Origin: Escherichia virus fEg-Eco19
Sequence record: NC_073314.1
DNA: 45,805 nucleotides
Strand: one strand, 5' to 3'
How positions within the stretch are numbered: the first letter of the stretch is position 1; every line of letters begins with the position of its first letter. Made by a program: the position numbers and the translations under genes. The notes under the pieces were generated by a model. It searched no databases. It was not told the DNA's origin and saw nothing but the letters and a program-made list of their open reading frames with translations. Shown here piece by piece: positions 129-37,745 of this stretch.

Positions 129-653
129 ATGAGTAACAAAAACGAAGTATTCGAGTACCTGATTGACCAGCTACGGCAGCAGGTAACTAGCAACCGGTGC
201 GAAGACCTGGCGCACGAGGTGTTGTCACTCAAGAATCAGTTACGTGATGCGTCGGCGCTGGTGGCTGAGTTACAGAAAGAACTTGATATCGCCAATAGCA
301 CCGTCGTTCGTTTGCGTAAAGAGATAGCTAAGTCTACCGGTGACATTGGAGAATACATCGATGCCACGGAGCAATCTGGTTGCCATAAGGAAGATACTCA
401 GTACAACGCCTGGAGGCCGCATTATGGTGCACGACAACCTGTTCCGGATGGGACTATGGTATTTATCCGGTATCGCAACGGGGAGGAGCCAAAACACAGT
501 GTAGCAGCGGAAAAGCGGTCGTGGATTTGGGATGGAACATACGCAGACATAGTGGAATACAAGATTGACACACAGGAATGTGAACATGACTATCGTTTGG
601 TTCTGTGGTGTAGCGACTTACAGCAGTGCTCTAAATGCGGGGAGATCAAATGA
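129..653 (+). CDS. hypothetical protein, N-terminal coiled coil, Cys/His-rich C-terminus
   Basis: 174-aa ORF with ATG start and GAGAGGAGAG RBS-like stretch upstream; no recognisable catalytic motif. Confidence 0.5.
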   Translation: MSNKNEVFEYLIDQLRQQVTSNRCEDLAHEVLSLKNQLRDASALVAELQKELDIANSTVVRLRKEIAKSTGDIGEYIDATEQSGCHKEDTQYNAWRPHYGARQPVPDGTMVFIRYRNGEEPKHSVAAEKRSWIWDGTYADIVEYKIDTQECEHDYRLVLWCSDLQQCSKCGEIK

Positions 654-855
654 CCAGCATATTATTTATCTGGGTATTGTCCGCAGGCCAGATGCAACTA
701 GCGGCATCAGAAACGTTTTATTCGATGGAGGCGTGCCAGTCAGCGGCACGCGCCGCAGAGAACGCGCACTTTCTGTTTCAGGGTGACAAGCCCAACGACT
801 CAGAGGTACGCGCTATCTGCTCACCTAAGCGACTTGGTAAACAGGAGAAGTGATT

Positions 856-1038
856 ATGGTACAGAGATATAGCTACAACCCAATGTTCGGGTTTACTCCT
901 GATGTTGAAGGCGGGTTAGTGCTTTACGAAGACTACGCGAAACTTGAAGCCGAGTTACAGAAATACAAAGACCAGTTCCCGGATTACGTCGAGTGCGCGA
1001 ATTGCGGGTCAATTACACATGTGGAAGGGGTGGAGTGA
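856..1038 (+). CDS. small hypothetical protein (tandem paralog A)
   Basis: Starts MVQRY; shares MVQRY...Y..Y.KLEA.L with the next ORF; C-terminal CxxC. Confidence 0.4.
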   Translation: MVQRYSYNPMFGFTPDVEGGLVLYEDYAKLEAELQKYKDQFPDYVECANCGSITHVEGVE

Positions 1039-1232
1039 TGGTACAGAGGTATGAGGTGGAAAAATGGGGCCTGCCAGAGCCTGAGATGGCTGAGTACGCA
1101 TACGGCGATTATGTAGAATACGACGCTTATCTTAAACTGGAAGCAAAGTTACGTGAATTCGCTGAACAGGTAATGTACGAACCTTGTTCGAAAGTTACAG
1201 AAGAAATGGCCCGCGAGATTCTCGGAATATGA
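1038..1232 (+). CDS. small hypothetical protein (tandem paralog B)
   Basis: Starts MVQRY at a TGATG stop/start overlap with the preceding ORF. Confidence 0.4.
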   Translation: MVQRYEVEKWGLPEPEMAEYAYGDYVEYDAYLKLEAKLREFAEQVMYEPCSKVTEEMAREILGI

Positions 1233-1522
1233 GCCTTGCAACTGACATCCTGAAACGAAGCGGCCTTGCGCCGCTGTCACCGAGAACGAACACCCGAATA
1301 TACAAGCGCCGCCGTAACGCGCTGTACCCTGAGATTCAAGCCAGACGCAAAGCAGTCCGCGCCTGCGGATTCCAGAACGGGAAGGCCGTGAATCTCGGTG
1401 AGTTTAAAACAAAGGAACGTGCAGCAATCGCTAATCGGTTATTTAATTACTGGAAATCGCTGGGGTACGATGATATTCCGACGAAACCGCAGAGACGACA
1501 ATACATCTGGAGACATAAATGA
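1229..1522 (+). CDS. hypothetical basic protein
   Basis: ATGA overlap with upstream stop; internal ATG of track ORF 1184..1522; Arg/Lys-rich. Confidence 0.4.
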   Translation: MSLATDILKRSGLAPLSPRTNTRIYKRRRNALYPEIQARRKAVRACGFQNGKAVNLGEFKTKERAAIANRLFNYWKSLGYDDIPTKPQRRQYIWRHK

Positions 1523-1956
1523 CTACTATCGCGTTTGACGGAAAGACAATGGCTTGTGACACGCGGGTATCGGGAAGCCATACCTACAACACAGACACAA
1601 AGATTTACGAGAATGAGTTTGTTGTTATTGGGGTGGATGGAGATGCGGGGGTTGGTATCCTTTTAGTGAAGGACGACGGTATTTTAGTGCCTAAGCATTA
1701 TGATTTTGATTTCTCTGCTTTGGTGTGGGTTAAAGACATCGAAACGTTGTGCAAGGTAGAGTTCTATAAATCGTGGGATTGTGCCCTTAGTTCGGTTATT
1801 CCAATTGCGGACAGTTTTGCCGCCGTTGGTTCTGGTGCGCCTTATGCATTAGCGGCTATGGAATGTGGCTATTCGGCACATGGTGGCGTGGCGGTGGCGT
1901 CGAAGTTCGACACTAACACCGGCGGCAAGATTATTACCAAACAACTATTAGGATAA
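1519..1956 (+). CDS. HslV/proteasome beta-subunit-like Ntn hydrolase (short form)
   Basis: N-terminus MTTIAFDG (Thr directly after Met) and C-terminal AVGSGAPYALAAMECG resemble HslV TTIVSV and AIGSGGPYAQAAARAL; 145 aa, shorter than bacterial HslV. Confidence 0.5.
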   Translation: MTTIAFDGKTMACDTRVSGSHTYNTDTKIYENEFVVIGVDGDAGVGILLVKDDGILVPKHYDFDFSALVWVKDIETLCKVEFYKSWDCALSSVIPIADSFAAVGSGAPYALAAMECGYSAHGGVAVASKFDTNTGGKIITKQLLG

Positions 1957-2015
1957 TTCCTACCCGTGGTATCCTCCAGTTACTGCATACTTAACACGCA
2001 CCTGGAGGATTCATC

Positions 2016-2324
2016 TTGGATAAATTTACTGAAACAGTGACGGGGTGGCTTCTCGCTGCCGCACTGGTCGGGGGATTGGTCGGACTAAGACAACATAAAA
2101 AGTCTATATCCGGGCCGATTGACGGACTGGTATTTCTCCTCACCGGCTTCGCGTGTGCCATTTTCGGTGCACCTCTTGCTGCTCAATGGTTCGGTATTAC
2201 CGGTGAGCGCGAGATAGCTGGCCTCGGATTCATCATTGCCATTCTCTGGATGCCTATCTATTCCCGCCTTTCTGGCATCGTATCGGGCGGCAATATTGCC
2301 CGCCCAGGAGGACCGCATGACTGA
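2016..2324 (+). CDS. holin-like membrane protein (3 predicted TM helices)
   Basis: Three hydrophobic stretches; immediately upstream of endolysin. Confidence 0.5.
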   Translation: MDKFTETVTGWLLAAALVGGLVGLRQHKKSISGPIDGLVFLLTGFACAIFGAPLAAQWFGITGEREIAGLGFIIAILWMPIYSRLSGIVSGGNIARPGGPHD

Positions 2325-2589
2325 GCTATTCTGGTTTGTCGTAATGCTGGCAATGGGCGCTTCGTCCCTGTTCAACGTGTATAATGAACGCGTGGACGAC
2401 GGGCTGTTCGGGCGTGTTCTCTATATCCTGACTGCTATCGTCTGTGCCGCCGGATGTATCCACCTGTTACAGGGCAGCATGTCACCAACGCTGCCTGAGA
2501 CATTAATCACATTAGTCGCGCTGCGCCAGATTCGCCAGGCGTGGCTGTCATACGGAGGACATAAGCGTGTCTCGAAATATTTCAGATAA
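2317..2589 (+). CDS. small membrane protein (second holin or antiholin candidate)
   Basis: Internal ATG of track ORF 2236..2589 (MTELFWFVVMLAMG...); two hydrophobic helices; overlaps endolysin start. Confidence 0.4.
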   Translation: MTELFWFVVMLAMGASSLFNVYNERVDDGLFGRVLYILTAIVCAAGCIHLLQGSMSPTLPETLITLVALRQIRQAWLSYGGHKRVSKYFR

Positions 2590-3055
2590 TGGATTGCATT
2601 TCTGTGCCGCGTTCGAGGGATTCCGCGGAACTGCGTATCGTGCTACGCCGAATGAGAAGTACCTGACTATTGGTTATGGTCACTACGGGCCAGACGTAAC
2701 ACCAGGTAAGACCATCACACCAGGACAGGGCTTGCTGTTACTGAATCGCGATATGGCTAAGGCTGTAGCTGCTGTTGACGCGGCAGCACACCATTCGCTT
2801 ACACAGGCACAGTTCGACGCCGTGTGTGACCTGGTCTATAACGCCGGTGCAGGTGTGATTGCAGCTACTACTGGCACGGGTAAGGCGCTGCGTTCTGGTG
2901 ATGTTGCGACGCTACGGGCTAAACTGGTGCTGTTTATCAACCAGAACGGCAAACCGCTACTGGGCCTGCGTCGCCGTACTGCAGGTCGTCTGGCGCTGTT
3001 CGACGGTAAACCATGGCAGGAGGCGGAGGCTATTGGACGCGCGGTGAAAGGTTGA
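2567..3055 (+). CDS. endolysin, T4-lysozyme-like (GH24) muramidase
   Basis: FEGFRGTAYRATPNEKYLTIGYGHYG matches the GH24 catalytic Glu / TIGYGH region; GTG start. Confidence 0.8.
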   Translation: MSRNISDNGLHFCAAFEGFRGTAYRATPNEKYLTIGYGHYGPDVTPGKTITPGQGLLLLNRDMAKAVAAVDAAAHHSLTQAQFDAVCDLVYNAGAGVIAATTGTGKALRSGDVATLRAKLVLFINQNGKPLLGLRRRTAGRLALFDGKPWQEAEAIGRAVKG

Positions 3056-3241
3056 TAGACTAACGGCAACAGAAGATTAAACAACATTGAGGGCACCCCG
3101 GGTATCATCACCCTCACGGACCTGTAACAGGGTCGAGCCAAAGTGCGGTAACGCGTGCCGGAGAATCTCTGTTGACACCTAAGACTAATCCGACGATACT
3201 TAAATCACCTCCTGCTCCATCCCTCTGCTCTCCAGTTTTAT

Positions 3242-3272
3242 CCCGGCCCTGACCCAGCCGGGATTTTTTTTA
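3242..3272 (+). terminator. rho-independent terminator
   Basis: CCCGGC...GCCGGG stem followed by a run of 8 T. Confidence 0.6.
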
Positions 3273-3293
3273 TCTATTTTCGGTAATGACTAG

Positions 3294-3322
3294 TTGACTA
3301 TTACCACCGACCCTATTATATT
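3294..3322 (+). promoter_or_regulatory. sigma70-like promoter TTGACT-N17-TATATT
   Basis: Read directly; ~40 nt upstream of ORF 3363. Confidence 0.45.
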
Positions 3323-3362
3323 TACTCCATCGACAACGAGAACGGAGTAGAGAGAGAGAGAA

Positions 3363-3551
3363 ATGACGACTAAGATTAAGCATACCGATAAATGGGGTGA
3401 TTTCCTGGAGATAGAGAAGTGCAGGGATGGTTCATTACTTATAACTTGCACCGACGGTGATAGTGACGAATTAGCTAATGTTAATGTGAGCCTGGATGAT
3501 TTTATGTCTATTGTTGAGCAGGTTATGGCGTTTTATGGAGATGTTAAATGA
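3363..3551 (+). CDS. small hypothetical protein
   Basis: 62-aa ORF, ATG start, purine-rich (AG)n leader. Confidence 0.45.
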   Translation: MTTKIKHTDKWGDFLEIEKCRDGSLLITCTDGDSDELANVNVSLDDFMSIVEQVMAFYGDVK

Positions 3552-3697
3552 AAATCACAGATACCGAAGCATTCAAAGATGCACAACTGATGGCACGCAT
3601 CGCCGTTAGCAACCTGAGCAACAGCATTCCGGCGGATGCGTTCTGGTTCGCTGCTATGCAGACACTGAAAGCAGCTTATGCAGGAGATAAGAAATGA
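3548..3697 (+). CDS. small hypothetical protein (49 aa)
   Basis: ATGA overlap with upstream stop; below the track size cutoff, translated by eye. Confidence 0.3.
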   Translation: MKITDTEAFKDAQLMARIAVSNLSNSIPADAFWFAAMQTLKAAYAGDKK

Positions 3698-3849
3698 GCG
3701 AACAAGGTCAAGTAAGCCAGCCATTACGAGTAGGCCGTAAAGTAAATCACACCCCATTCCCGACACGTGAGGAACTGATGAAACGAAACAGTTTCCCGGG
3801 GCCGGACAAGAACAAGTATCTCAATCGCATGTGGGGAGAGAAGAAATGA
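3694..3849 (+). CDS. small hypothetical protein (51 aa)
   Basis: ATGA overlap chain; translated by eye. Confidence 0.3.
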   Translation: MSEQGQVSQPLRVGRKVNHTPFPTREELMKRNSFPGPDKNKYLNRMWGEKK

Positions 3850-4034
3850 CCGACCGTGAATACGAAAAGATGATGGTAGAGGCCGCAAACGGCAAAACGC
3901 AGAATGCTAAAGCTGAAATAGGGATACTAGATAGGCGGATAGAAGAACAGGCCCGATACCTTGACCGCCTTATGGAGCGCCGCCGTGAACTGATTAACCG
4001 CTTCAACCTGAACAAAGGTGACGCCAATGCCTAA
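3846..4034 (+). CDS. small hypothetical protein, coiled coil
   Basis: Internal ATG of track ORF 3831..4034 (MTDREYEKMM...). Confidence 0.4.
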   Translation: MTDREYEKMMVEAANGKTQNAKAEIGILDRRIEEQARYLDRLMERRRELINRFNLNKGDANA

Positions 4035-4266
4035 AATCACAATCGCATTACTAGAGCGCCGTATTCTGGTGCTTGAGTCAGAGAAACAGACGTTAGGTGG
4101 GCAACTGTCGATTAACGGTGGATTTCAACTGGAGGCGTTTAAGTTGCTACTTGAGCGCATGAAAGCGGACGAAAAGCCTTGCGCGCACGACTACTACATG
4201 CATTTAGTTGATGGGGTACATCGAGTCACATGCTTAAAATGTGGTAAAGCGTATGAAAGCGCCTGA
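4027..4266 (+). CDS. small hypothetical protein with C-terminal zinc-ribbon-like motif
   Basis: Internal ATG of track ORF 4018..4266; CxH...CxxC at C-terminus. Confidence 0.4.
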   Translation: MPKITIALLERRILVLESEKQTLGGQLSINGGFQLEAFKLLLERMKADEKPCAHDYYMHLVDGVHRVTCLKCGKAYESA

Positions 4267-4435
4267 GCCAGTAGTTATTGACGGCGTCCTGTGGAAACCT
4301 TACTCGGTTAACCACATTGACGCCGACGGGAAGAAGTTCAGCTTCTACATTTTTGCAATTAGCCGTGAGCACGCCGCCTGTGTGGTTGATGATATACGAG
4401 AAACGGCGTGGCTCGGTGATGAGATAGTGGGGTGA
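4253..4435 (+). CDS. small hypothetical protein
   Basis: Internal ATG of track ORF 4241..4435 (track start is GTG). Confidence 0.35.
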   Translation: MKAPEPVVIDGVLWKPYSVNHIDADGKKFSFYIFAISREHAACVVDDIRETAWLGDEIVG

Positions 4436-4522
4436 GAGTATGAGTCTTCAGGTTGTTATAAGTCTGGTGGGTCTTAGTTACTTCATCGGGCTGTTGGTTG
4501 GATCTCTGTGGGGTAGATACTA

Positions 4523-10990: not shown

Positions 10991-11350
10991 ATGAATCTTA
11001 AAGCAACTGTCGTAGCCGGAGCATGTTTCGTCGTCCTAGCCTACGCACACGGCATCTATCAATACCGCAGCGGCTGGGGTGAAGGCCGTGCTAATCTCGT
11101 TTCGCAGCAGCAGCAGAAAGCACAGGCCGCGCTGGTGAAGAAAACACAACGGCAGCAGCAGGATGAATCAAAGGCCGCCGCCGCTGACAACGAAGGCAAA
11201 ACGAAATCAGAGGTGATAACCCGTGAAGTCGTTAAGTACATAAGTCGACCCAATAAGGTATCTTGCAAGTTTGACGCTGATAGAGTTAGAATCAAATACG
11301 ACGCTGTCAACAACGCAAACGGGATACCAGGGTATGACGATATTAAATGA
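10991..11350 (+). CDS. putative i-spanin (Rz-like)
   Basis: N-terminal TM helix, then Q/K/A-rich helical region, conserved Cys near C-terminus; 119 aa. Confidence 0.4.
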   Translation: MNLKATVVAGACFVVLAYAHGIYQYRSGWGEGRANLVSQQQQKAQAALVKKTQRQQQDESKAAAADNEGKTKSEVITREVVKYISRPNKVSCKFDADRVRIKYDAVNNANGIPGYDDIK

Positions 11351-11840
11351 TACTTTCTACTACGATGATGGGGTTCTTTACTGGCGTAGCAGTAAGCTCG
11401 CCAATAAAACAGGAACCCCAGCAGGGTGCCTAACTACGCCGAAAGGCGCAAAACGGCGACAGACGATAGAGGTTAGATGGATGGGGAAGGCGTTTCAAGC
11501 GCACCGTCTTATATGGGAACTTTTCAATGGGCCAATTCCGACGCCATATGAGATAGACCACATTGACGGGAACCCACTCAACAATCGTATAGAAAATCTA
11601 AGGCTTGCTACTAGCCAAGAGAACAGTCGTAACGTTGGTCTCACGTCCGCTAATAGTACAGGGTTCAAAGGGGTTTCCAGGTTCCCAAACGGCAGATTCC
11701 GTGCGGACATAAGAATCCGCAACAAGACCAAATACCTCGGTCAGTTCGACTCCCCCGTCGACGCACACAAGGCCTACGTGCAAGCTGCCAAGAAGCTACA
11801 TGGAGATTTTTTCAAATGCGACTGCCAATATTGCTCTTAG
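11334..11840 (+). CDS. HNH homing endonuclease with AP2-like domain
   Basis: AHRLIWELFNG...EIDHIDGNPLNNRIENLRLATSQENSRN, then GFKGVSRF...AYVQAAKKLHGDF; paralogous to 31390..31875 and 33289..33786. Confidence 0.75.
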   Translation: MTILNDTFYYDDGVLYWRSSKLANKTGTPAGCLTTPKGAKRRQTIEVRWMGKAFQAHRLIWELFNGPIPTPYEIDHIDGNPLNNRIENLRLATSQENSRNVGLTSANSTGFKGVSRFPNGRFRADIRIRNKTKYLGQFDSPVDAHKAYVQAAKKLHGDFFKCDCQYCS

Positions 11841-31389: not shown

Positions 31390-31875
31390 TCACGTCGTTT
31401 CTCCGTGGTTTTCATGAAATCCGTAAGCAGCCTCCGCGGCTTTACGCGCGGCAACAGCTTCGTCAAAATTATCAAACTGTCCTAGATGTATTTTTCTTCT
31501 GTCGACTTTTATCTCTGCCACCCATTTGTTTCTTCTCTTTTCCCGCCATACACCAAGAGCGCCGCTAGTATTGTTTACCCCTATTGATGCGTTGCGGCTA
31601 TTTTCGGTGTTGGTAACTTTCCGTAGGTTGCGTATTCGGTTATCAGTTCGTATATGATTAATGTGGTCTATCTGTTCCTGTGGCGTAAGTTGGTTATCTG
31701 GATTGCAGATATTCCATGCTAACCGGTGTGCTAGTTCTAGTTTTCCGTTTACTCGGATACGAATGTACCCATCCCGTGGACAAAAGCATCCCGCTTTCTT
31801 TCCAATAAAACCCCTACGTTTTGTTTCAGCCCATGTGAAAATACCGGTTTCAGGGTCGTATGATACCTTGCTCAT
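31390..31875 (-). CDS. HNH homing endonuclease with AP2-like domain
   Basis: AHRLAWNICNPDN...IDHINHIRTDNRIRNLRKVTNTENSRN, then GALGVWRE...AAYGFHENHG. Confidence 0.75.
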   Translation of the reverse strand: MSKVSYDPETGIFTWAETKRRGFIGKKAGCFCPRDGYIRIRVNGKLELAHRLAWNICNPDNQLTPQEQIDHINHIRTDNRIRNLRKVTNTENSRNASIGVNNTSGALGVWREKRRNKWVAEIKVDRRKIHLGQFDNFDEAVAARKAAEAAYGFHENHGETT

Positions 31876-33296
31876 TTCTTACTCCTACGTTTCATATACT
31901 CAAGGAGGATATCCTGCACCTGTTTTTTCTCGTCTGTGCGTGAAGTGACAACAGAATCCAACGTATCTTTAGCAATAATCTTGTAGATAAAAACAGGGCG
32001 ATTATACCCCGATTGCTTTTGCCGTACTGGCCCTATGCGCTCTACAACCTGTAAATAGTGTTCGAGGTTCCACCCCTGACTGAAAAATGCCATATGATGG
32101 CCGCCGTCTTGTAGCGATATGCCGTGCCCGGCTGACGCGGGGTGCACGCATAAGATTTCGATTTCACCGCGGTTCCACGCTTCCATCTGCTTATTGCCCT
32201 TCGCACCTTTGGCGAACGCCTGTGCCTGAGGGAATCGCTTAAGGATACGCTCAAGTTCGTGCTTAAACTGATAAGCTACCAGTAACGGTGCACCCTGTAG
32301 CTCCTCCACAATCGACTCTAGCGCATCCAGTTTCGTGTCGTGCACTTTCTCCCATTCTTTGGTTGCTTCACCGTCCGGCCCTGATACATACACAGCACCA
32401 GATGCAATCTGTAAACACTTCGACGTCTTTGCTGCCGCGTTAGCCGCTTCAACTTCTCCGCTCTCAAGTTCCGCGAATAACTTTTCCTCCATATCGATGT
32501 ACGCCTGGCGCGCCTTCTTCGGCAGGTCGATTTCAACAGGGACGATAACGGGCGCTTCGCAGCCAAACCACTCGGCAGCGTCAATCGTGAGACTGATGTC
32601 CTTCATCTTCTGGTGAATTTCATTATCCGCGCCAGGGCGCGCATGATACTCACGTGCCATAGCCGATTTGCCTTTCTGGACAGAGTTAAACCATCGGTCG
32701 GTGAATGCCGTGTATGAAGAACCGAGGCGCTCGCCAGCGTCGATAAACCAGTTCTGACCCCACAAGTCTTTGAGGCCGTTCGGTGACGGCGTTCCCGTCA
32801 GGTTGATGAAACGCTTAACCTTACCGAATGCCACTTTACTAAGCGCCTTTGCCCGCTTGCTGCCACCTGAACGGCTACGGAAAGATTTCAGTTTCGTGCT
32901 TTCATCGGCAACAATAACCGTAAAAGGCCAGTCGTCTTTGCCGTAATAGTCAATAAGCCACTCGATAACTTCGTAGTTTGTACAGACCACATTAGCGTCT
33001 GACTCCAGCGCCGCGATGCGGCGCTTCTCCGAACCAGTTGCATCTACGACGCGCAGACAAGGGAAGTTCCAACGTGCCTGTTCCGCGGGCCACGTACCGG
33101 ATGCAACACGTAAAGGAGCCAGAATTAATACCCGGTCGTAGTCCGTAAGTTGGCCGTTGCGGAACAGTCGGTTGAGAACCCACAACGTTGACCCCGACTT
33201 GCCGCTGCCCATCGAAGCCCAAATATTACAGCGAGGGTGCTGCAACATGAACGAAGTCATGAGCTTTTGGTACTCCCTGCGGGTAAATTTAGCCAT
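31872..33296 (-). CDS. SNF2-family (superfamily 2) helicase
   Basis: Walker A MGSGKSGS, motif II VIVADESTKLK, C-terminal QVVERIGPVRQ. Confidence 0.65.
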   Translation of the reverse strand: MAKFTRREYQKLMTSFMLQHPRCNIWASMGSGKSGSTLWVLNRLFRNGQLTDYDRVLILAPLRVASGTWPAEQARWNFPCLRVVDATGSEKRRIAALESDANVVCTNYEVIEWLIDYYGKDDWPFTVIVADESTKLKSFRSRSGGSKRAKALSKVAFGKVKRFINLTGTPSPNGLKDLWGQNWFIDAGERLGSSYTAFTDRWFNSVQKGKSAMAREYHARPGADNEIHQKMKDISLTIDAAEWFGCEAPVIVPVEIDLPKKARQAYIDMEEKLFAELESGEVEAANAAAKTSKCLQIASGAVYVSGPDGEATKEWEKVHDTKLDALESIVEELQGAPLLVAYQFKHELERILKRFPQAQAFAKGAKGNKQMEAWNRGEIEILCVHPASAGHGISLQDGGHHMAFFSQGWNLEHYLQVVERIGPVRQKQSGYNRPVFIYKIIAKDTLDSVVTSRTDEKKQVQDILLEYMKRRSKK

Positions 33297-33786
33297 TATT
33301 AACCCCGTGGTTGGTATGGAAACCGTATTCTATTTCTGCGGCTTTACGTACCGACAATGCCTCTTCGAACGTCTTAAATCTGCCTAGTTCCATAAGTATT
33401 GTTTTTACACGTATGCGCGCTCGCCAAATACCTTCTTTTATCAAAAATTCCACACCAGTTGCGCCGGTCTTATTACATGTGTACAAGCTCTTGTTCTGCA
33501 TGTTTTGTTGCGTTGTAACCTTACGTATGTTGTCCCCTCTGTTGTTAGTTTTGTCATGATCTATGTGGTCTATTTCATCGTCCGGCCCTAATAAATCATC
33601 AGGGTGTAACGTATCCCACGCTAAACGATGCGCCTGATACATCTTTCCGTCTATTTTTATCCTGACGTAGCCGTTACTTTTACTGCCGCCCGCTATGGAG
33701 CCAGCGGAACGACCTCGCGGGGCAACCACCCATGTGAAAATCCCGGTGTCTGGGTTATAGTCCAGTCTGCCGTCGAAGCATTTCAT
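33289..33786 (-). CDS. HNH homing endonuclease with AP2-like domain
   Basis: AHRLAWDTLHPDD...IDHIDHDKTNNRGDNIRKVTTQQN, then GATGVEF...AEIEYGFHTNHG. Confidence 0.75.
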   Translation of the reverse strand: MKCFDGRLDYNPDTGIFTWVVAPRGRSAGSIAGGSKSNGYVRIKIDGKMYQAHRLAWDTLHPDDLLGPDDEIDHIDHDKTNNRGDNIRKVTTQQNMQNKSLYTCNKTGATGVEFLIKEGIWRARIRVKTILMELGRFKTFEEALSVRKAAEIEYGFHTNHGVNNG

Positions 33787-34494: not shown

Positions 34495-37400
34495 TTACTT
34501 AGCATAGCGTTTCAACTCCGCACCTTCCGCTACAAGAGGGAAGCCTTCTGCCCACTCCGGCAACGCGCACATTAATTTCTCCAGTTCAGCCACCGTGTAC
34601 TCTGGGGTGTCCGGAGTTTCACACACCAGTTCATCGTGTACCGAAAGCACGATAGGATACCCACCACCCTCAACGTTAATCATCGCATATGCCAGTAAAT
34701 CACGGCACAGCGCCTGAACAATGTTTTCACAGGCTTTGCCGCCGTGTGTGTATAGAGTTGTCCATTGGCGGGTTAACTGGTTTTCACCCTGATACTTGAT
34801 TCGCACATTCGTGTTCATCCGTCCGTCTTCGTCTGTTTCCTTTGTCACGCTAACGCCGATTCCCGGATACGAGAGGATACGGCCCGACGGCAACTCCATA
34901 CACAACCACCAACCAGGAACCTTCCTGCCGGATGAATCAAATTCTACAGTACGCCATATGCGGATAGCCCTTTCCCCATTCCTGCGCAAGTGTGCCCCCG
35001 CCCAAAATTCACGACCGGGATTACGAACAGCAGCTAAAATTCCGTCTTTAAGGTCGCGCCAGAACGCTACTGTTTCCGGGTGTGACTCGCGCCACATACG
35101 CTTGATTGCGTCACATGTGCGCCACACTTTCTTATCAAGAATATACGATGGTCGGTCATCCTTTTCACCCGGATGCGGTGGTCGCTTGGCTTCCTGAATA
35201 CGCGCCCACTCATACCCACGCGCGGTAGCAGCCCAGATGTGGTCGGGGAAAGTCCCGTCCATTGTTTTTGCCATCTCAATAAGGTCAAGACCTAAGTTTT
35301 TAGCGAACGTAACGAATGCTCCGACGCCGCCTTCGTATCCGAGTCCAAGCTCGCAGTTATGCGCCACAAGAAAGCCAGAGTCGGAAGCGATAAGAAAACG
35401 GTTGCCGTCTTCCACATCAATCAGGTCGTACACTGGCTCGCAGTAGGTTAATTTCCCGTTCAAGCTCAGCAATGCGGGCAACGGCTGCATCATACTTTCG
35501 TTGAAGCTCAGGTATTCGCCGTCTGTTACGGCAGTTTTCAGAACGGCTGACAAACCGAATGTTTCCAGGTTCGTAGTTACCGTCTGTGTCGATTCTATCC
35601 ATTTCGAGGTTCGGGTCATCCCAGCCTTCCAGAGTTTGAACATATCTAAGAAAAGACCTTTTATCAGTCCTCCACTGGTCAAATACCGTGATGCCTCTTG
35701 CCCCATAGTTTTTATAACCCTTATCCCTGGGGCTTGTTGTCCGCGTGATTGCCGCGGACAGCCGGTTGAGTAATCGCGTTCTGTGCACATCATCCGGCAT
35801 TGCGTCTTCGTAGCAGAAATATTGTTTACGATATTTTTTTGTTGCTTCAAGGGCGCAACGGTTGCATTGAGTGGTTTTACCTGCTCTGACATTGTCATAA
35901 TAGACCCGCCCCGGCATCTCTCCGCAATCACATTGGACGAGTAGTTGTCTTTGGCCTTGTCGTTTTGGTAACTCGCGCAGGATAACCAGGCGTCCATACC
36001 TATCTCCAGGGCGCGGTCCATCATATATTTGTTTGAAACGAGTTGCTTTGCCTGCTTCCAGGAATGCGTCAAGATTTTGTGGTCTTCGGTCATTAGCACC
36101 CCGTCCACATTTATCACCGGTTTCCACCCCATAAGGTGCGCGCCTTTTGTATTCACCCATTTTTCGCCACTCCATACTTTATCTGTCGATGTGACCGCCA
36201 TAATATCCTTAAATCCGCCATAGGTCAAAACTTGGGTATGGCGGTGAAGGCAGGCTTTACCAATCTGGCGTAAGTCTTTGCGTTCTTTCTTAATGTAATC
36301 CGGCTCCATACCAAACATCTTACCCGCGGTTACGCAGTAAATATCCAACCCGGCGCGGAACGTATCGAGCGCGGTTTCTTCACCAGCCAGCCACGCAAGC
36401 CCTCGGCCTTCAACGTTAGAGTAATCGGCAACAACAAACTTATGTCCGGCTTCCGGTATGATGCAGCTACGAACGGTCGATGCCGTTAGCTTGGCCACAT
36501 CGAAACGGCGATGGGCGCGACCCTTAAGTAACGCCGAAATGCCTTTATCCAGCTCATCATCGTGATAGTAACCGCGTGCCAGGTTCTGCGGCTGGAAGCC
36601 TTTACCAGCCCATCGCAGAGTACGTTTTGCCCCACCGTACTGCAAGCAACCACGACGGCGGTCGTCGGACGAGCGGCCTAACAGCAATGGGTTATATTTC
36701 GTTGACGCGGTAGACGCGGCCCCGAGGCGCATTTCGATAATCGCGCGAGCGTCGTCTGGTAAATCATCATCCGAAAGCAGGTCATTAAGCGTCGACTTCT
36801 GCGCATTGTGGATGCGGTGCGCTGGGGCAAGCTCACGCAGAATCGGCAGAAAGTCCTTACCAGTAAGCGAGCCGCCGTATTTGCGTTGGGCTTCTTCCTG
36901 CAACCGTGCCTTGTGCTTCTCCACAGCTTCAATCGCGGCTTCTGCCAGGGCAACGTCAACCTTAAACCCGCGGTCGTTGATTAACTGGTCCAGTTCCAGT
37001 ACACGGTCTTCGAACTCGGAGTTACCCCACCGCGGCAGCTTATGGAAGACTTCACGCATTGCGGTGATGTCACTCACGGCGTATTTGATGAACAGTACCC
37101 ACTCGTCCGGGTGTGTTTCAGCGGTGTAGCGACGGATTTTGTAGTTCTTCGGCGTCGGTTTAGAGAAACGCTGAATCAGCGCCTTGCCTCGTTTGTCTTT
37201 CGCGTTGTCTGCTGACACGCCCAGCACTTCGCACAACGCATCGAGGGAACCCGGCAGCGCGTGACGAAACGCCCAAATCATCGTATCAATGGTGTTGCCT
37301 ACAGGAATATCAAAGTCCCAGCAGTGTTTCATGATGAGCCTATCGAACATTGAGCCGTTGTGCCATACCATCTTGATGCGACTGTTCGGCTTAACCAGAC

Positions 37401-37593
37401 GGCGTAGAGCGCGGTGTAAATCACCCGGCATGTCGCTGCCGTCGGTGCAATCCCATACCTGCACAGGCTCGTCGTCAAAGGCATAGGTACAGATGAGCAC
37501 TTCGGTTGACGGGTGTTCGGCGTAAGCGTAGGAGCCGACTTTCTTCAAATCGGCTTCGGAGAATGTTTCAAAGTCCAGGTATAAGTAGCTCAT
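34495..37593 (-). CDS. family A DNA polymerase with 3'-5' exonuclease domain, interrupted by an intein in motif B
   Basis: Exo motif LYLDFETFS, motif A VVADYSNVEGRGLAWLAGEE, motif B split as RQIGKA | intein | CELGLGYEGG; likely start is the internal ATG (MSYLYLDFET) with AAGGA RBS, track ORF starts at an upstream TTG. Confidence 0.85.
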   Translation of the reverse strand: MSYLYLDFETFSEADLKKVGSYAYAEHPSTEVLICTYAFDDEPVQVWDCTDGSDMPGDLHRALRRLVKPNSRIKMVWHNGSMFDRLIMKHCWDFDIPVGNTIDTMIWAFRHALPGSLDALCEVLGVSADNAKDKRGKALIQRFSKPTPKNYKIRRYTAETHPDEWVLFIKYAVSDITAMREVFHKLPRWGNSEFEDRVLELDQLINDRGFKVDVALAEAAIEAVEKHKARLQEEAQRKYGGSLTGKDFLPILRELAPAHRIHNAQKSTLNDLLSDDDLPDDARAIIEMRLGAASTASTKYNPLLLGRSSDDRRRGCLQYGGAKRTLRWAGKGFQPQNLARGYYHDDELDKGISALLKGRAHRRFDVAKLTASTVRSCIIPEAGHKFVVADYSNVEGRGLAWLAGEETALDTFRAGLDIYCVTAGKMFGMEPDYIKKERKDLRQIGKACLHRHTQVLTYGGFKDIMAVTSTDKVWSGEKWVNTKGAHLMGWKPVINVDGVLMTEDHKILTHSWKQAKQLVSNKYMMDRALEIGMDAWLSCASYQNDKAKDNYSSNVIAERCRGGSIMTMSEQVKPLNATVAPLKQQKNIVNNISATKTQCRMMCTERDYSTGCPRQSRGQQAPGIRVIKTMGQEASRYLTSGGLIKGLFLDMFKLWKAGMTRTSKWIESTQTVTTNLETFGLSAVLKTAVTDGEYLSFNESMMQPLPALLSLNGKLTYCEPVYDLIDVEDGNRFLIASDSGFLVAHNCELGLGYEGGVGAFVTFAKNLGLDLIEMAKTMDGTFPDHIWAATARGYEWARIQEAKRPPHPGEKDDRPSYILDKKVWRTCDAIKRMWRESHPETVAFWRDLKDGILAAVRNPGREFWAGAHLRRNGERAIRIWRTVEFDSSGRKVPGWWLCMELPSGRILSYPGIGVSVTKETDEDGRMNTNVRIKYQGENQLTRQWTTLYTHGGKACENIVQALCRDLLAYAMINVEGGGYPIVLSVHDELVCETPDTPEYTVAELEKLMCALPEWAEGFPLVAEGAELKRYAK
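35356..36252 (-). mobile_element. intein (299 codons) in DNA polymerase motif B
   Basis: Hint blocks in polymerase frame: N-terminal CLHRHT, block B LMTEDHKILT, blocks F/G VYDLIDVEDGNRFLIASDSGFLVAHN followed by Cys. Confidence 0.7.
35417..36175 (-). CDS. HNH endonuclease ORF inside the intein, in a different frame from the polymerase
   Basis: 252-codon ORF offset from polymerase frame (37647-36175=1472, not a multiple of 3); GYKNYGARGITVFDQW...EGW...DRIDTDGNYEPGNIRFVSRSENCRNRRR; shares EGW...DKD...YSP motif with 18559..19191 and 24270..24920. Confidence 0.55.
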   Translation of the reverse strand: MEWRKMGEYKRRAPYGVETGDKCGRGANDRRPQNLDAFLEAGKATRFKQIYDGPRPGDRYGRLVILRELPKRQGQRQLLVQCDCGEMPGRVYYDNVRAGKTTQCNRCALEATKKYRKQYFCYEDAMPDDVHRTRLLNRLSAAITRTTSPRDKGYKNYGARGITVFDQWRTDKRSFLRYVQTLEGWDDPNLEMDRIDTDGNYEPGNIRFVSRSENCRNRRRIPELQRKYDAAVARIAELEREINLLRASVRPD

Positions 37594-37745
37594 TTCTTTT
37601 TCCTTAAATCCAGTGCCTTCGTTTCGCTTAATCTTATTTTCATACAATCACGACAAATCCACACATGTCTGTACCCGGCGCGGTACTCATCCGCGTACCA
37701 CGGAAGTGGCTTCATGTATCGGTATACGTGCTTGCAGAAAAACAT
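37590..37745 (-). CDS. small Cys-rich protein (51 aa), coupled to polymerase start
   Basis: Translated by eye (MFFCKHVYRYMKPLPWYADEYRAGYRHVWICRDCMKIRL...); stop overlaps polymerase ATG as ATGA. Confidence 0.25.
   Translation of the reverse strand: MFFCKHVYRYMKPLPWYADEYRAGYRHVWICRDCMKIRLSETKALDLRKKK

Follow-up and report, generated by a model that had tools for sequence, protein, structure and literature searches.

The family-A DNA polymerase gene of Escherichia virus fEg-Eco19 is split by an in-frame class-1 intein, and the DNA that encodes this intein holds a second conserved gene in another frame of the same strand. The window analyzed here is the whole 45,805-nt stretch of sequence record NC_073314.1, and all coordinates refer to it. 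The usual picture of an intein combines a splicing domain with an in-frame endonuclease domain. The earlier note on this DNA had instead described an intein with a nuclease gene encoded out of frame inside it; that observation is confirmed, and the interpretation placed on it is supported. The element is probably a mobile class-1 intein that divides splicing and homing between two polypeptides, whose reading frames overlap on the same DNA.

To define the insertion, the polymerase gene was compared with intein-less orthologs. The polymerase ORF is unbroken over 34495..37647 (minus strand) in the ORF list for this record, and its true start is likely the ATG at 37593, based on the CDS annotation of phage fPoEco01. 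The precursor consists of a 3'-5' exonuclease domain, a polymerase domain and the intein (Pfam), and is divided as follows.

34495..37593, minus strand: family-A DNA polymerase precursor gene; ORF with Pfam DNA_pol_A and exonuclease domains
36253..37593, minus strand: N-extein coding region, ending in ...RQIGKA, the first half of motif B/O-helix, at the junction with intein-less alleles
35356..36252, minus strand: class-1 intein of 299 codons, from Cys1 (TGC, 36252..36250) to Asn299 (AAC, 35358..35356)
34495..35355, minus strand: C-extein coding region, starting with Cys+1 (TGC, 35355..35353) and CELGLGYEGG, the second half of motif B

The 897-nt insert (CLHRHT...VAHN|C) splits motif B of the polymerase exactly and in frame. 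In silico, the ortholog alignment establishes this to the nucleotide: the same 897 nt are absent from the polymerase genes of fFiEco03 and Jersey, where the junction reads RQIGKA|CELGLGY. Across this junction the intein-less alleles read GGTAAAGCC|TGCGAACTGGG, and the motif-B region of fFiEco03 or Jersey reads ...CAGATTGGTAAAGCC|TGCGAACTGGGACTC... The coordinates and frames that the earlier note gave for a polymerase ORF continuous across a 299-codon motif-B insertion are correct, and the alignment to intein-less polymerases that it proposed as a check returns an insertion of exactly 897 nt, missing from both fFiEco03 and Jersey. In the record of phage Ent1, the identical 897 nt are annotated as an intein.

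Read in the polymerase frame, the insert begins with Cys1, contains a TxxH block B and ends in HN, followed by Cys+1. Among 54 relatives, C1, T55, H58 and N299 are invariant and H298 is nearly so (at least 90%). The embedded members (54–63 relatives) all show the pattern C1...[H/S]N|C/S, in which the +1 residue is Cys or Ser. These residues lie in two lobes that are separated by a long linker.

35953..36252, minus strand: Hint N-lobe (intein aa 1–100), with block A, a WxGxxWV motif and block B, GVLMTEDHKILT, at 36067..36102
35515..35943, minus strand: intein-frame linker (aa 104–246), with AF2 pLDDT <50 and no secondary structure
35356..35445, minus strand: Hint C-lobe (intein aa 270–299), with blocks F and G, VYDLIDVEDGNRFLIASDSGFLVAHN

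An AF2 model of the intein predicts a Hint fold for the two lobes, with pLDDT values of 95–98 at aa 1–95 and 93–97 at aa 270–299, and <50 at aa 104–246. The top 33 Foldseek PDB matches of this predicted structure are all inteins or Hint domains, including the gp41-1, DnaB and RecA inteins. Their probabilities are mostly 0.84–1.00, with the lowest (0.08) at the end of the list, and their E-values are modest (0.009–0.1) because the local alignment covers the N-lobe only. A profile built from 54 family members likewise matches inteins only among PDB sequences (best E 4e-4, to block B of Mtu RecA). Searches of Pfam and NCBIfam (TIGR01445/TIGR01443) gave no Hint or intein match for the polymerase-frame insert or its isolated N and C pieces at E≤10, and single-sequence phmmer searches of both frames against PDB gave no matches. 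The failure of the curated Hint profiles is uninformative, not negative, since Hint is detected by the profiles built from the family and by structure prediction. Thus, of the Hint and HNH_3 profile scoring suggested in the earlier note, the formal outcome is a failure in both frames, and the Hint assignment is backed by the family profiles together with the predicted structure. The splicing blocks that the note had read in the polymerase frame hold up, as their residues are conserved family-wide and fall in a confidently predicted Hint fold.

Because essential motif B is split, protein splicing of the insert is implied. In agreement with the earlier claim that the center of the polymerase frame has no endonuclease motif, this stretch has no protein family match in Pfam or NCBIfam, and ~143 aa of it are predicted to be disordered (AF2). 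The linker is filler that gets translated: the nested gene read through in the +1 frame. A precedent for an insertion that hides an HNH endonuclease in another frame without splicing is the ShiLan domain, which is inserted in frame in a DNA methylase of a mycobacteriophage (PMC11855218). Like the fEg-Eco19 insert, it has an open host frame over an other-frame HNH-type endonuclease and evolves in a homing-like manner. It differs in that a splicing domain is undetected and the domain is thought to be retained in the protein, whereas the nested gene of fEg-Eco19 lies within a complete intein. A ShiLan-like insertion, kept as a polymerase loop, would fit the absence of a Pfam or NCBIfam Hint match, but it is highly improbable here: the class-1 splicing residues are all conserved, the Hint lobes have pLDDT >93 and match solved inteins, and 299 retained aa are unlikely to be tolerated in the O-helix/motif B of an essential polymerase.

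The second gene of the element is located as follows.

35417..36175, minus strand: nested ORF of 252 codons, encoding a putative homing endonuclease (DRxD-type, HNH superfamily); stop TGA at 35419..35417

The codons of this ORF start 1 nt upstream of the polymerase codons, which places it in the −1 frame. The overlap with intein blocks B and F that the earlier note reported is present, with the nested ORF covering block B (TEDH, at about 36079..36090), reaching into the start of block F (VYDLID) and sharing ~55–60 codons of the Hint N-lobe.

To assess whether both frames are maintained, the nested protein was held fixed, its synonymous codons were permuted, and the stops in the polymerase frame were counted. 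Over the nested ORF, the host frame is stop-free in 62 of 62 distinct relatives, the most divergent of which are about 34% identical, versus an expected 4.6 stops per relative (mean P(0)=0.014 each). Free-standing relatives of the nested gene carry 10.9 (about 11) stops in the corresponding frame. For the fEg-Eco19 sequence, shuffling yields a mean of 5.6 polymerase-frame stops, and 0 of 300 shuffles is stop-free. The open polymerase frame over the nested ORF is more than chance, and the nested ORF belongs to a genuine protein family that is conserved and subject to purifying selection.

Selection on both frames is also evident in silico from the distribution of conservation and substitutions. 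Conservation is higher in the intein frame at aa 1–70 and 271–299 and higher in the nested frame at aa 71–270; within the linker, pairwise identity is 0.00–0.33 in the intein frame versus 0.26–0.68 in the nested frame. In nine near-identical alleles, the central substitutions at nested codon positions 2/3/1 number 6/41/20, a wobble-type pattern, and most central-region substitutions fall at intein codon position 2. In the Hint C-lobe, the substitutions at intein codon positions 1/2/3 number 0/1/5.

In GenBank, the nested gp39 and the polymerase of Sodalis phage SO-1 are labeled as containing a 'type I self-splicing intron', and HNH-bearing group I introns are known from phage DNA polymerase genes (for example I-PfoP3I, PMC3428280). 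With these introns and with the SO-1 annotation, the fEg-Eco19 element shares a mobile insertion in a conserved polymerase motif and an independently translated HNH-type ORF. It differs from them in lacking a group I ribozyme signature and in its predicted removal from the protein instead of the RNA, so that the host frame must remain open through the nested gene. Were the insert a group I intron with an HNH homing endonuclease gene, the open polymerase frame would be incidental; instead, it is stop-free in 62/62 diverse members against the 4.6 stops expected, intein catalytic residues sit at both termini of a confidently predicted Hint fold, and substitutions in the terminal regions follow polymerase-frame wobble. 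An Rfam search of 35000..36600 on both strands found no intron family at E≤10. A group I intron was rejected on the Rfam result and the frame conservation, and is barely conceivable.

A sequencing or assembly artefact, in which the endonuclease would truly be in frame and compensating indels mis-called, has next to no probability. In Salmonella phage SS3e, a 1-nt length difference does fuse the N-terminal part of the intein to the nested frame. However, the window shares its frame relation with 10 isolates or loci that were sequenced independently and with about 50 divergent relatives from metagenomes, and a chance-open alternative frame of 250 codons is excluded by the shuffling. The artefact was rejected because many independent genomes agree.

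Candidate expression signals for the nested gene occur at two places inside the Hint N-lobe coding sequence.

36158..36175, minus strand: candidate nested starts, ATG at 36175..36173 and ATG at 36160..36158, on the codons of the invariant intein residues Trp27 and Trp32
36200..36228, minus strand: sigma-70 promoter-like element (TTGACC-17-TATTAT) within the codons of block A, ~25 nt upstream of the nested ORF

A GGAG at 36173..36170 sits 9 nt before the second candidate ATG. An NTG start is found at the Trp27- or Trp32-derived sites in 52 of 54 relatives, and an SD-like tract in 28 of 54. The promoter-like element has 10/12 consensus matches, and TTGACN-17-TATNNT recurs at the same position in 29/61 relatives versus 8.3 expected from synonymous resampling; for the amino-acid sequence of fEg-Eco19 itself, such a match is expected by chance ~53% of the time. 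Judged by its sequence, this element may function as a promoter.

As a route to the nested protein, −1 ribosomal frameshifting, which would yield a fusion of N-extein, Hint-N and HNH parts in place of a product of internal initiation, is very doubtful. The nested frame is indeed −1 relative to the polymerase in the main family, and an A-rich run (GAAAAAT) lies at the frame junction in the window. By inspection, however, a canonical X XXY YYZ heptamer is absent from the window, relatives such as L005 do not conserve the A-run, conserved NTG starts exist, and sister inteins have a +1 nested gene. Programmed −1 frameshifting was rejected on the absence of a canonical slippery heptamer and of conservation, both by inspection.

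The nested protein has 318 homologs of about 240–250 aa. It matches PHROG 374, 'HNH endonuclease', with an E of 1e-47; matches to PHROG families so annotated range from 1e-47 to 1e-19, and there is a weak match to PHROG 'endonuclease VII' (E 1.5e-5). The AF2 model has a pLDDT of 79 overall and >85 for aa 55–250, and three parts of the protein are assigned as follows.

35855..36004, minus strand: Zn-ribbon/small beta domain (nested aa 58–107, CxC...CxxC), CapR-type DNA-binding by homology
35519..35617, minus strand: putative beta-beta-alpha (His-Me finger-like) core (nested aa 187–219), DPNLEMDRIDTDGNYEPGNIRFVSRSENCRNRR
35429..35515, minus strand: C-terminal long helix (nested aa 221–249), an AF2 helix that overlaps the segment leading into block F

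Residues C82, C84, C104 and C107 are invariant in the nested-protein alignment, and five family members reach the gathering score of Pfam CapR (PF21817) at the Zn-ribbon region. CapR is an HEG-associated Zn-finger DNA-binding domain (PMC10448857). The order of parts in the nested protein, a CapR-type Zn finger (at aa ~50–107 in relatives) with the DRxD core C-terminal of it, is a homing-type modularity. The predicted C-terminal helix is probably a coiled coil; weak coiled-coil Pfam matches (ZapB, DivIC, bZIP_2) are found in several members of the family.

Within the core, a DRxD...N...N motif is invariant, and N205, N214 and N217, likewise invariant, align with Asn residues of the HNH_3 ORF. 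The residue that aligns with the general-base His of HNH enzymes is Arg194, which is invariant in the alignment, and 'DR' is present in 67/68 clade members. Nuclease activity is not to be assumed because this His position is occupied by an invariant Arg. Pfam and NCBIfam HNH models do not match the nested ORF at E≤10, and none of 34 nested-family members matches Pfam HNH at E≤1. An hhalign comparison of the nested core with the window's canonical HNH_3 ORF yields an E of 9.5e-5 over 33 columns only, and BLASTP of the 252-aa ORF against the free-standing HNH_3 genes of the window shows no significant similarity. The 'clear HNH endonuclease' of the earlier description is hence better called an HNH-superfamily variant, in which the canonical catalytic His and a Pfam HNH match are absent. 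Its claimed paralogy to two free-standing HNH genes is retained at the motif level only, over the 33-residue core; BLASTP does not bear it out, and these genes number three.

Given these features, the intein could be real and the nested protein not, or no longer, a homing nuclease. It would then bind DNA, for example as a regulator or targeting factor, while its His-Me core would be inactivated, and mobility would come from other nucleases in trans or from ordinary recombination. The Arg in place of the catalytic His in 67/68 clade members, the lack of a Pfam HNH match across the family and the weak structural likeness of the nested protein to HNH enzymes are consistent with this explanation, as are the three canonical HNH_3 ORFs within the window and the known domestication of CapR-type HEG DNA-binding domains as repressors (PMC10448857). 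In contrast, the DRxD...N...N core is among the best-conserved parts of both embedded and free-standing members, which is unexpected for a dead site, and the ORF moves with the intein between sites and genes as part of an element that has spread horizontally in recent times. Loss of the nuclease function is, on balance, unlikely, and a homing role for the nested protein is retained in the preferred reading.

A word-indexed protein search with the intein frame returned four near-identical matches only, and it took an exhaustive search to reveal the family. At E≤1e-3 the family comprises 1007 protein clusters, and its exteins are motif B of PolA and SNF2 helicases, in Gram-negative and environmental phages. 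The distribution is sporadic, with the intein carried by 167/439 related phage records; by megablast, 161 records cover the region. Between Kagunavirus and Jerseyvirus phages, the intein is 94–97% identical and the exteins are 77–92% identical, with raised identity immediately outside the intein. These in silico comparisons point to recent horizontal spread of the element. The nested ORF stays with the intein at different insertion sites and in different genes. Among relatives with a differing central region, Pfam finds no in-frame endonuclease, and three of their four inteins also hold a nested out-of-frame DRxD-type ORF, the one without it being the first intein of L089. In sister inteins, the nested gene is in the +1 frame. 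The overprinted arrangement is no single-genome oddity, since it holds across hundreds of sequence clusters, and its recurrence in hundreds of other phage polymerases makes it look like a stable design and not an error.

In the model that we propose, ribosomes in the polymerase frame would read straight on through the insert. Intein aa 1 to ~100 and ~270–299 would fold as a Hint domain joined by a ~170-aa unstructured tether. Splicing by Cys1, TxxH, His-Asn and Cys+1 would excise the 299 aa and ligate RQIGKA to CELGLGY, restoring the O-helix/motif B of the polymerase, with an expected junction peptide of ...RQIGKACELGLGYEGG... / ...QIGKACELGLGYEGG... In the −1 frame, internal initiation would occur at an ATG on an invariant intein Trp codon, at 36160 or 36175, perhaps on an internal transcript that starts from the promoter-like element inside block A. 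The product, of 247–252 aa, would comprise the CapR-type Zn finger, a helical region, the DRxD nuclease-like core and the C-terminal coiled coil. This protein would cut intein-less polymerase alleles of co-infecting phages, and repair off the intein-bearing allele would copy the element and flanking sequence into the cut allele (homing).

A broader reading, which we hold to be an even call, is that the fEg-Eco19 intein belongs to an old class of overprinted inteins, very widespread among phage replication genes, in which the Hint N-lobe coding sequence doubles as an expression cassette for the nuclease gene. Its sites would be PolA motif B (two, four codons apart), further positions in PolA and motif III of SNF2 helicases. 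In this cassette, block A would supply a sigma-70-like promoter, Gly-Glu codons the SD and an invariant Trp codon the start, and the center of the intein would be merely a stop-free, disordered read-through that is thrown away on splicing. The presence of related DRxD genes in the other alternative frame of sister inteins suggests repeated capture of free-standing HEGs by mini-inteins, or frame-hopping of the nested gene. Repeated capture corresponds to an order of splicing first, endonuclease later.

Several known systems resemble parts of this arrangement. With canonical class-1 inteins (PI-SceI, Mtu RecA PI-MtuI and phage inteins with an in-frame HNH), the element shares exact in-frame insertion at an active-site motif of a replication enzyme, the Cys1, TxxH and His-Asn|Cys+1 residues, Hint lobes parted by a central region, a sporadic distribution, and better conservation than that of the host gene. 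It differs in that the center of the intein frame is disordered and without a domain, and the endonuclease-like protein is separate, in the −1 frame. In fractured genes, where a free-standing HEG lies between the two halves of a split intein (Dassa et al. 2009, PMC2677866), and in collaborative homing by free-standing HEGs, separate splicing and endonuclease products likewise cooperate for mobility, a likeness that fits an origin in which splicing came first and an HEG invaded later. The host gene and intein of fEg-Eco19 are, however, contiguous, and the HEG is overprinted rather than splitting them.

The closest descriptions concern some actinobacteriophage inteins, which carry out-of-frame (frame 3) endonuclease VII-like genes or antisense LAGLIDADG/VSR-like genes and are proposed to have arisen when a free-standing HEG invaded an intein (Gosselin, Arsenault and Gogarten, bioRxiv 10.1101/2025.01.02.630785). 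As in those elements, the fEg-Eco19 element combines an intact splicing domain with an ORF in another frame within the intein, the feature by which the preprint recognizes them, and shows evidence of continued horizontal transfer. By their description, the actinophage proteins are EndoVII-like with an N-terminal nuclease core, whereas the protein here is of the DRxD HNH type with a CapR-like Zn finger; the weak PHROG 'endonuclease VII' match is the one hint of a homology between the two. The hosts and exteins also differ, and the scale of the PolA family is far larger. Finally, the second ORF of the actinophage inteins typically lies outside the splicing domain, whereas the nested ORF of fEg-Eco19 overlaps it and its start uses Trp codons. 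In the literature searched, only two 2025 papers from the Gogarten laboratory, on other elements, were found, and no prior description of a large PolA family of out-of-frame inteins. Out-of-frame endonuclease inteins are thus already known from a few actinophages, and the PolA DRxD family is a new variant.

If the model is correct, the family would provide an abundant natural test case for HEG acquisition by inteins via invasion by free-standing HEGs. Because Jersey-like Salmonella and E. coli phages serve in phage typing and biocontrol, experiments on it are feasible. The element would also offer a clean, long (~250-codon) case of same-strand dual coding in which selective constraints are separable by frame, and would show that a Hint domain tolerates an unstructured insert of ~170 aa, which would be useful for intein engineering. 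The conflicting annotations of these polymerases ('intein', 'group I intron', 'HNH endonuclease', 'hypothetical protein' and split genes) would be explained, and attention would be drawn to a large DRxD branch of HNH-like proteins.

The window derives from a Jersey-like/K1G-like siphophage (Guernseyvirinae), and its polymerase gene shares 92.9% identity with that of Escherichia phage vB_EcoS_fPoEco01 and 80-90% identity with those of many Salmonella Jerseyviruses. Based on comparison with fPoEco01, the polymerase probably starts at the ATG at 37593. The features of this locus are as follows.

34495..37647, minus strand: ORF of a family-A DNA polymerase (PolA) with a 3'-5' exonuclease domain
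35356..36252, minus strand: 299-codon interruption of the polymerase (...RQIGKA / CLHRHTQVLT ... FLVAHN / CELGLGYEGG, slashes marking the junctions)
35417..36175, minus strand, the same as the polymerase: nested ORF of 252 codons

The nested codons begin 1 nt upstream of the polymerase codons, and the nested ORF therefore lies in the -1 frame. These positions and frames bear out the coordinates and description in the earlier note, which had proposed an intein in motif B with an endonuclease ORF out of frame inside it. Alignment to intein-less orthologues defines the insertion exactly: precisely these 897 nt are missing from the close relatives fFiEco03 (Kagunavirus) and Jersey (Jerseyvirus), in which the junction reads GGTAAAGCC/TGCGAACTGGG. 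Cys+1 therefore belongs to the native polymerase, whose O-helix/motif B is split by the insertion. In one related 43,221-bp contig (L010, IMGVR_UViG_2597490042_000001), the intein is intact and the host ORF (1583..3964) stops prematurely downstream of it, at 794 aa versus about 1032 aa, which points to a frameshift or nonsense mutation in that record's C-extein.

Curated Hint profiles, by which the intein assignment was to be checked, gave no support: neither the whole insert nor its ends matched a Hint/intein profile of Pfam or NCBIfam even at E<=10, and a single-sequence phmmer search of the PDB returned no match. An Rfam scan of the region gave no match to an intron family at E<=10. With the intein frame as query, an exhaustive HMMER search covering 1.8 billion representatives returned 1007 proteins at E<=1e-3, of which 318 reached E<=1e-10; the majority are 900-1300 aa long and align over all 299 aa at about 30-37% identity. 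In an alignment of 54 diverse members (A2), C1, T6, G13, W27, G29, G37, T55, H58, W65, D276 and N299 are invariant and H298 is nearly so. The profile built from A2 matches only inteins among PDB sequences, including Mtu RecA (E 4e-4 over block B), the NEQ068 split intein and the DnaX and DnaB mini-inteins. AlphaFold2 run on A2 predicts beta strands with pLDDT 95-98 at aa 1-95 and 93-97 at aa 270-299, and aa 104-246 fall below 50 and lack secondary structure. The best 33 Foldseek matches of this model in the PDB are all inteins or Hint domains, including gp41-1, Ssp DnaB, MchDnaB, DnaE, Mtu RecA, Vint, BIL and Hedgehog, with probabilities mostly of 0.84-1.00 (the last matches down to 0.08) and rmsd values mostly of 2-5 Å (maximum 7.5) over 69-94 columns. 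From the family profile and the predicted fold, we conclude that the insert is a class-1 intein, the central half of which is predicted to have no fold of its own. Together with the evolutionary pattern, these data also suggest that the insert would undergo protein splicing.

At E<=1e-3, the nested protein has 318 homologs, most of which are 236-250 aa long and 40-58% identical. Among 34 members aligned (A1), the invariant motifs are a CxC...CxxC zinc motif, HRxRLLNR, YxxYGxRGI and DRxD(x4)YEPGNxRF(x5)NxxNxR. Its AlphaFold2 model (mean pLDDT 79; aa 1-32 below 50, aa 55-250 mostly above 85) consists of a small beta domain (63-92), helices, a strand-strand-helix unit (190-216) and a long C-terminal helix (221-249). 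At aa ~50-103, five family members pass the Pfam gathering threshold for the CapR homology domain; this DNA-binding Zn finger is typical of phage homing endonucleases (PMC10448857). The earlier note had called the product a clear HNH endonuclease, and this description holds in part. In its favor, the ORF matches several PHROG families labelled 'HNH endonuclease', including phrog_374 at E 1e-47, and its core, DPNLEMDRIDTDGNYEPG-NIRFVSRSENCRNRR, aligns with GPDDEIDHIDHDKTNNRGDNIRKVTTQQNMQNKS of the window's canonical HNH_3 ORF (hhalign, E 9.5e-5, 33 columns); against it, the canonical catalytic His is replaced by Arg in the DRxD motif. This substitution is the main question mark over the homing model. 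Sequence, predicted structure and evolutionary pattern suggest that the nested ORF is translated and that its product would be a nuclease with a target site.

A further PHROG family, phrog_93, labelled 'endonuclease', matches polymerase aa 483-855, i.e., the intein frame and part of the C-extein, at E 3e-209. It seems to derive from gene predictions with starts within the intein, and its label probably does not refer to a nuclease domain in the intein frame. The window also holds three canonical, free-standing ORFs of the HNH_3 type, which share the motif DH[I][DN]...N...N, at 11244..11840 (plus strand), 31390..31878 (minus strand) and 33289..33786 (minus strand; Pfam HNH_3 E 1e-8). Two of these lie on either side of the SNF2 helicase gene, immediately downstream of the polymerase, and the replication module is rich in homing-endonuclease genes.

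Selection on the two frames was compared in 80 viral contigs encoding nested-protein relatives and three metagenomic contigs. In all 62 distinct relatives of at least about 34-38% identity, the frame 1 nt downstream of the nested one has no stop along the entire nested ORF and belongs to an 850-1250-aa ORF or to one truncated by the contig end, and each host ORF reads C1...[H/S]N/C or S. Relatives at <=34% identity are mostly free-standing and carry 1-23 stops in the corresponding frame (mean 10.9). When the nested protein was held fixed and its synonymous codons were shuffled, 4.6 host-frame stops were expected (mean P of zero 0.014 per sequence) versus 0 observed in 62/62; the count in the third frame, about 19 stops, agrees with expectation. 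Among 55 divergent members, pairwise identity at intein aa 1-70 and 271-299 is higher in the intein frame (0.31-0.62) than in the nested frame (0.18-0.30), and at aa 71-270 it is higher in the nested frame (0.26-0.68 versus 0.00-0.33). Nine near-identical Jersey-like alleles have 67 central variable sites, distributed 6/41/20 over nested codon positions 2/3/1. This is a classic wobble pattern for the nested frame, with most substitutions falling on intein-frame position 2. The pattern is reversed in the C-terminal Hint lobe of the same alleles (intein positions 1/2/3, 0/1/5). The nested gene is therefore under current purifying selection, and the sole constraint on the center of the intein frame is staying open. 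One relative, L078 (match 553..1272), has one would-be host-frame stop versus 4.8 expected, and its open stretch extends over 234 aa. The copy may represent an intein that has decayed or acquired a frameshift.

Candidate expression signals of the nested ORF lie within intein coding sequence. An NTG codon occupies one of three fixed sites in 52/54 members (ATG in 50). These sites are created by the invariant intein motif W27-D-G-x-x-W32-V, with the base preceding a Trp codon and its TG forming the start. In about half of the members, the Gly-Glu codons between the two Trp codons form an SD-like purine tract. The candidates in the window are as follows.

36175 and 36160, minus strand: candidate ATG starts at the Trp-derived sites
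36173..36170, minus strand: SD-like GGAG, 9 nt upstream of the second ATG
36228..36200, minus strand: sigma-70-like TTGACC-17-TATTAT, within block A coding sequence

TTGACN-17-TATNNT occurs at the same position in 29/61 members versus 8.3 expected by synonymous resampling; the chance expectation for the window's own amino-acid sequence is about 0.5. Inspection of the frame junction revealed no canonical -1 slippery heptamer, and the A-run there is not conserved, which favors internal initiation. The nested ORF would then be expressed in this way, possibly from an internal transcript.

A 1-kb query spanning the intein matches 88 phage records at 95-99% identity and 70 more at 90-95%, with hosts that include Salmonella, Escherichia, Shigella and Sodalis. 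Over the whole polymerase, identity is mostly 80-90%, and only 167/439 related records have the insert. The intein is 94% identical between the window and Ent1, compared with 77% for the N-extein and 89% for the C-extein; identity rises to 92-94% in the few hundred nt adjoining the intein, as would be expected from co-conversion. Most metagenomic homologs of the nested protein (P0007-P0123, e.g., on L004) lie on contigs of ~0.9-1.1 kb, roughly intein-sized, many of which hold the element alone. This suggests assembly breaks at the boundaries of an element common to divergent co-occurring phage genomes, and would fit a polymorphic insertion.

Database annotation of the element is inconsistent. 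The same 897 nt are an intein mat_peptide in the Ent1 GenBank record, and the Sodalis phage SO-1 record (L002, NC_013600.1) assigns the nested ORF to the HNH endonuclease of a 'type I self-splicing intron'. Two features of that record are as follows.

1334..4522: continuous polymerase CDS
2818..3576: nested HNH gene

In other records, the region is given as 'intein', 'hypothetical protein', 'endonuclease' or simply 'DNA polymerase'. In Salmonella phage SS3e (L015, IMGVR_UViG_638275545_000001; locus 2951..3757, protein P0004), the intein differs internally in length by 1 nt. The difference splits the polymerase ORF into two and places the N-part of the intein (aa 12-104) in frame with the nested ORF; the resulting 268-aa protein is annotated 'HNH endonuclease'. 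The difference reflects either a sequencing error or a natural allele that is frame-fused or defective. A published phylogeny included the SETP3 intein as a 'full intein' (PMC3749507). For inteins of actinobacteriophages, a 2025 preprint describes homing endonucleases in another frame of the intein, namely out-of-frame EndoVII-like, antisense LAGLIDADG and antisense VSR-like cases, the same-strand case being previously unreported according to its authors (bioRxiv 10.1101/2025.01.02.630785). The ShiLan domain, an insertion that does not splice and conceals an HNH, is the subject of a related paper (PMC11855218); in contrast, the element here is a class-1 intein with a nested ORF. Neither the PolA/SNF2 family nor its -1-frame DRxD gene, nor the start and promoter features embedded in it, was found described in the literature searched. 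The element is real, widespread and mis-annotated, and the concept was already anticipated by earlier work.

Within PolA motif B, the clade occupies two insertion sites four codons apart, GK[ATV]/C[EI]LGLGY and GKxxxL[AGS]/CG[FY]xxG; a further PolA site is seen in L083, and SNF2-helicase motif III is interrupted in L069 and in P0238/L090. The latter two loci (L069, intein 2753..3622; L090, gene 301..2691) encode SNF2-family helicases cut at LTGT...N...E/C, with nested nuclease-like ORFs. The window's own SNF2 helicase (31872..33296, minus strand) has no intein. In L089, L090 and L091, Hint relatives with a different center, Pfam detects no in-frame endonuclease domain, and related DRxD/ERVD-type ORFs are nested in the +1 frame, the opposite alternative to that of the window. 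The metagenomic PolA genes L089 (301..4221) and L091 (301..4107) have two clade inteins each, three of the four with such an ORF; the first intein of L089, ~206 aa long without a nested ORF, may be a mini-intein. A distant nested-protein relative of about 32% identity (L073, match 3001..3552) has a 980-aa host-length ORF open in the +2 rather than the +1 frame, with 0 stops versus 7.4 expected. Its nested ORF is +1 relative to the host frame, the second frame relationship, as in L089-L091. The overprinted arrangement is a recurrent property of this intein clade.
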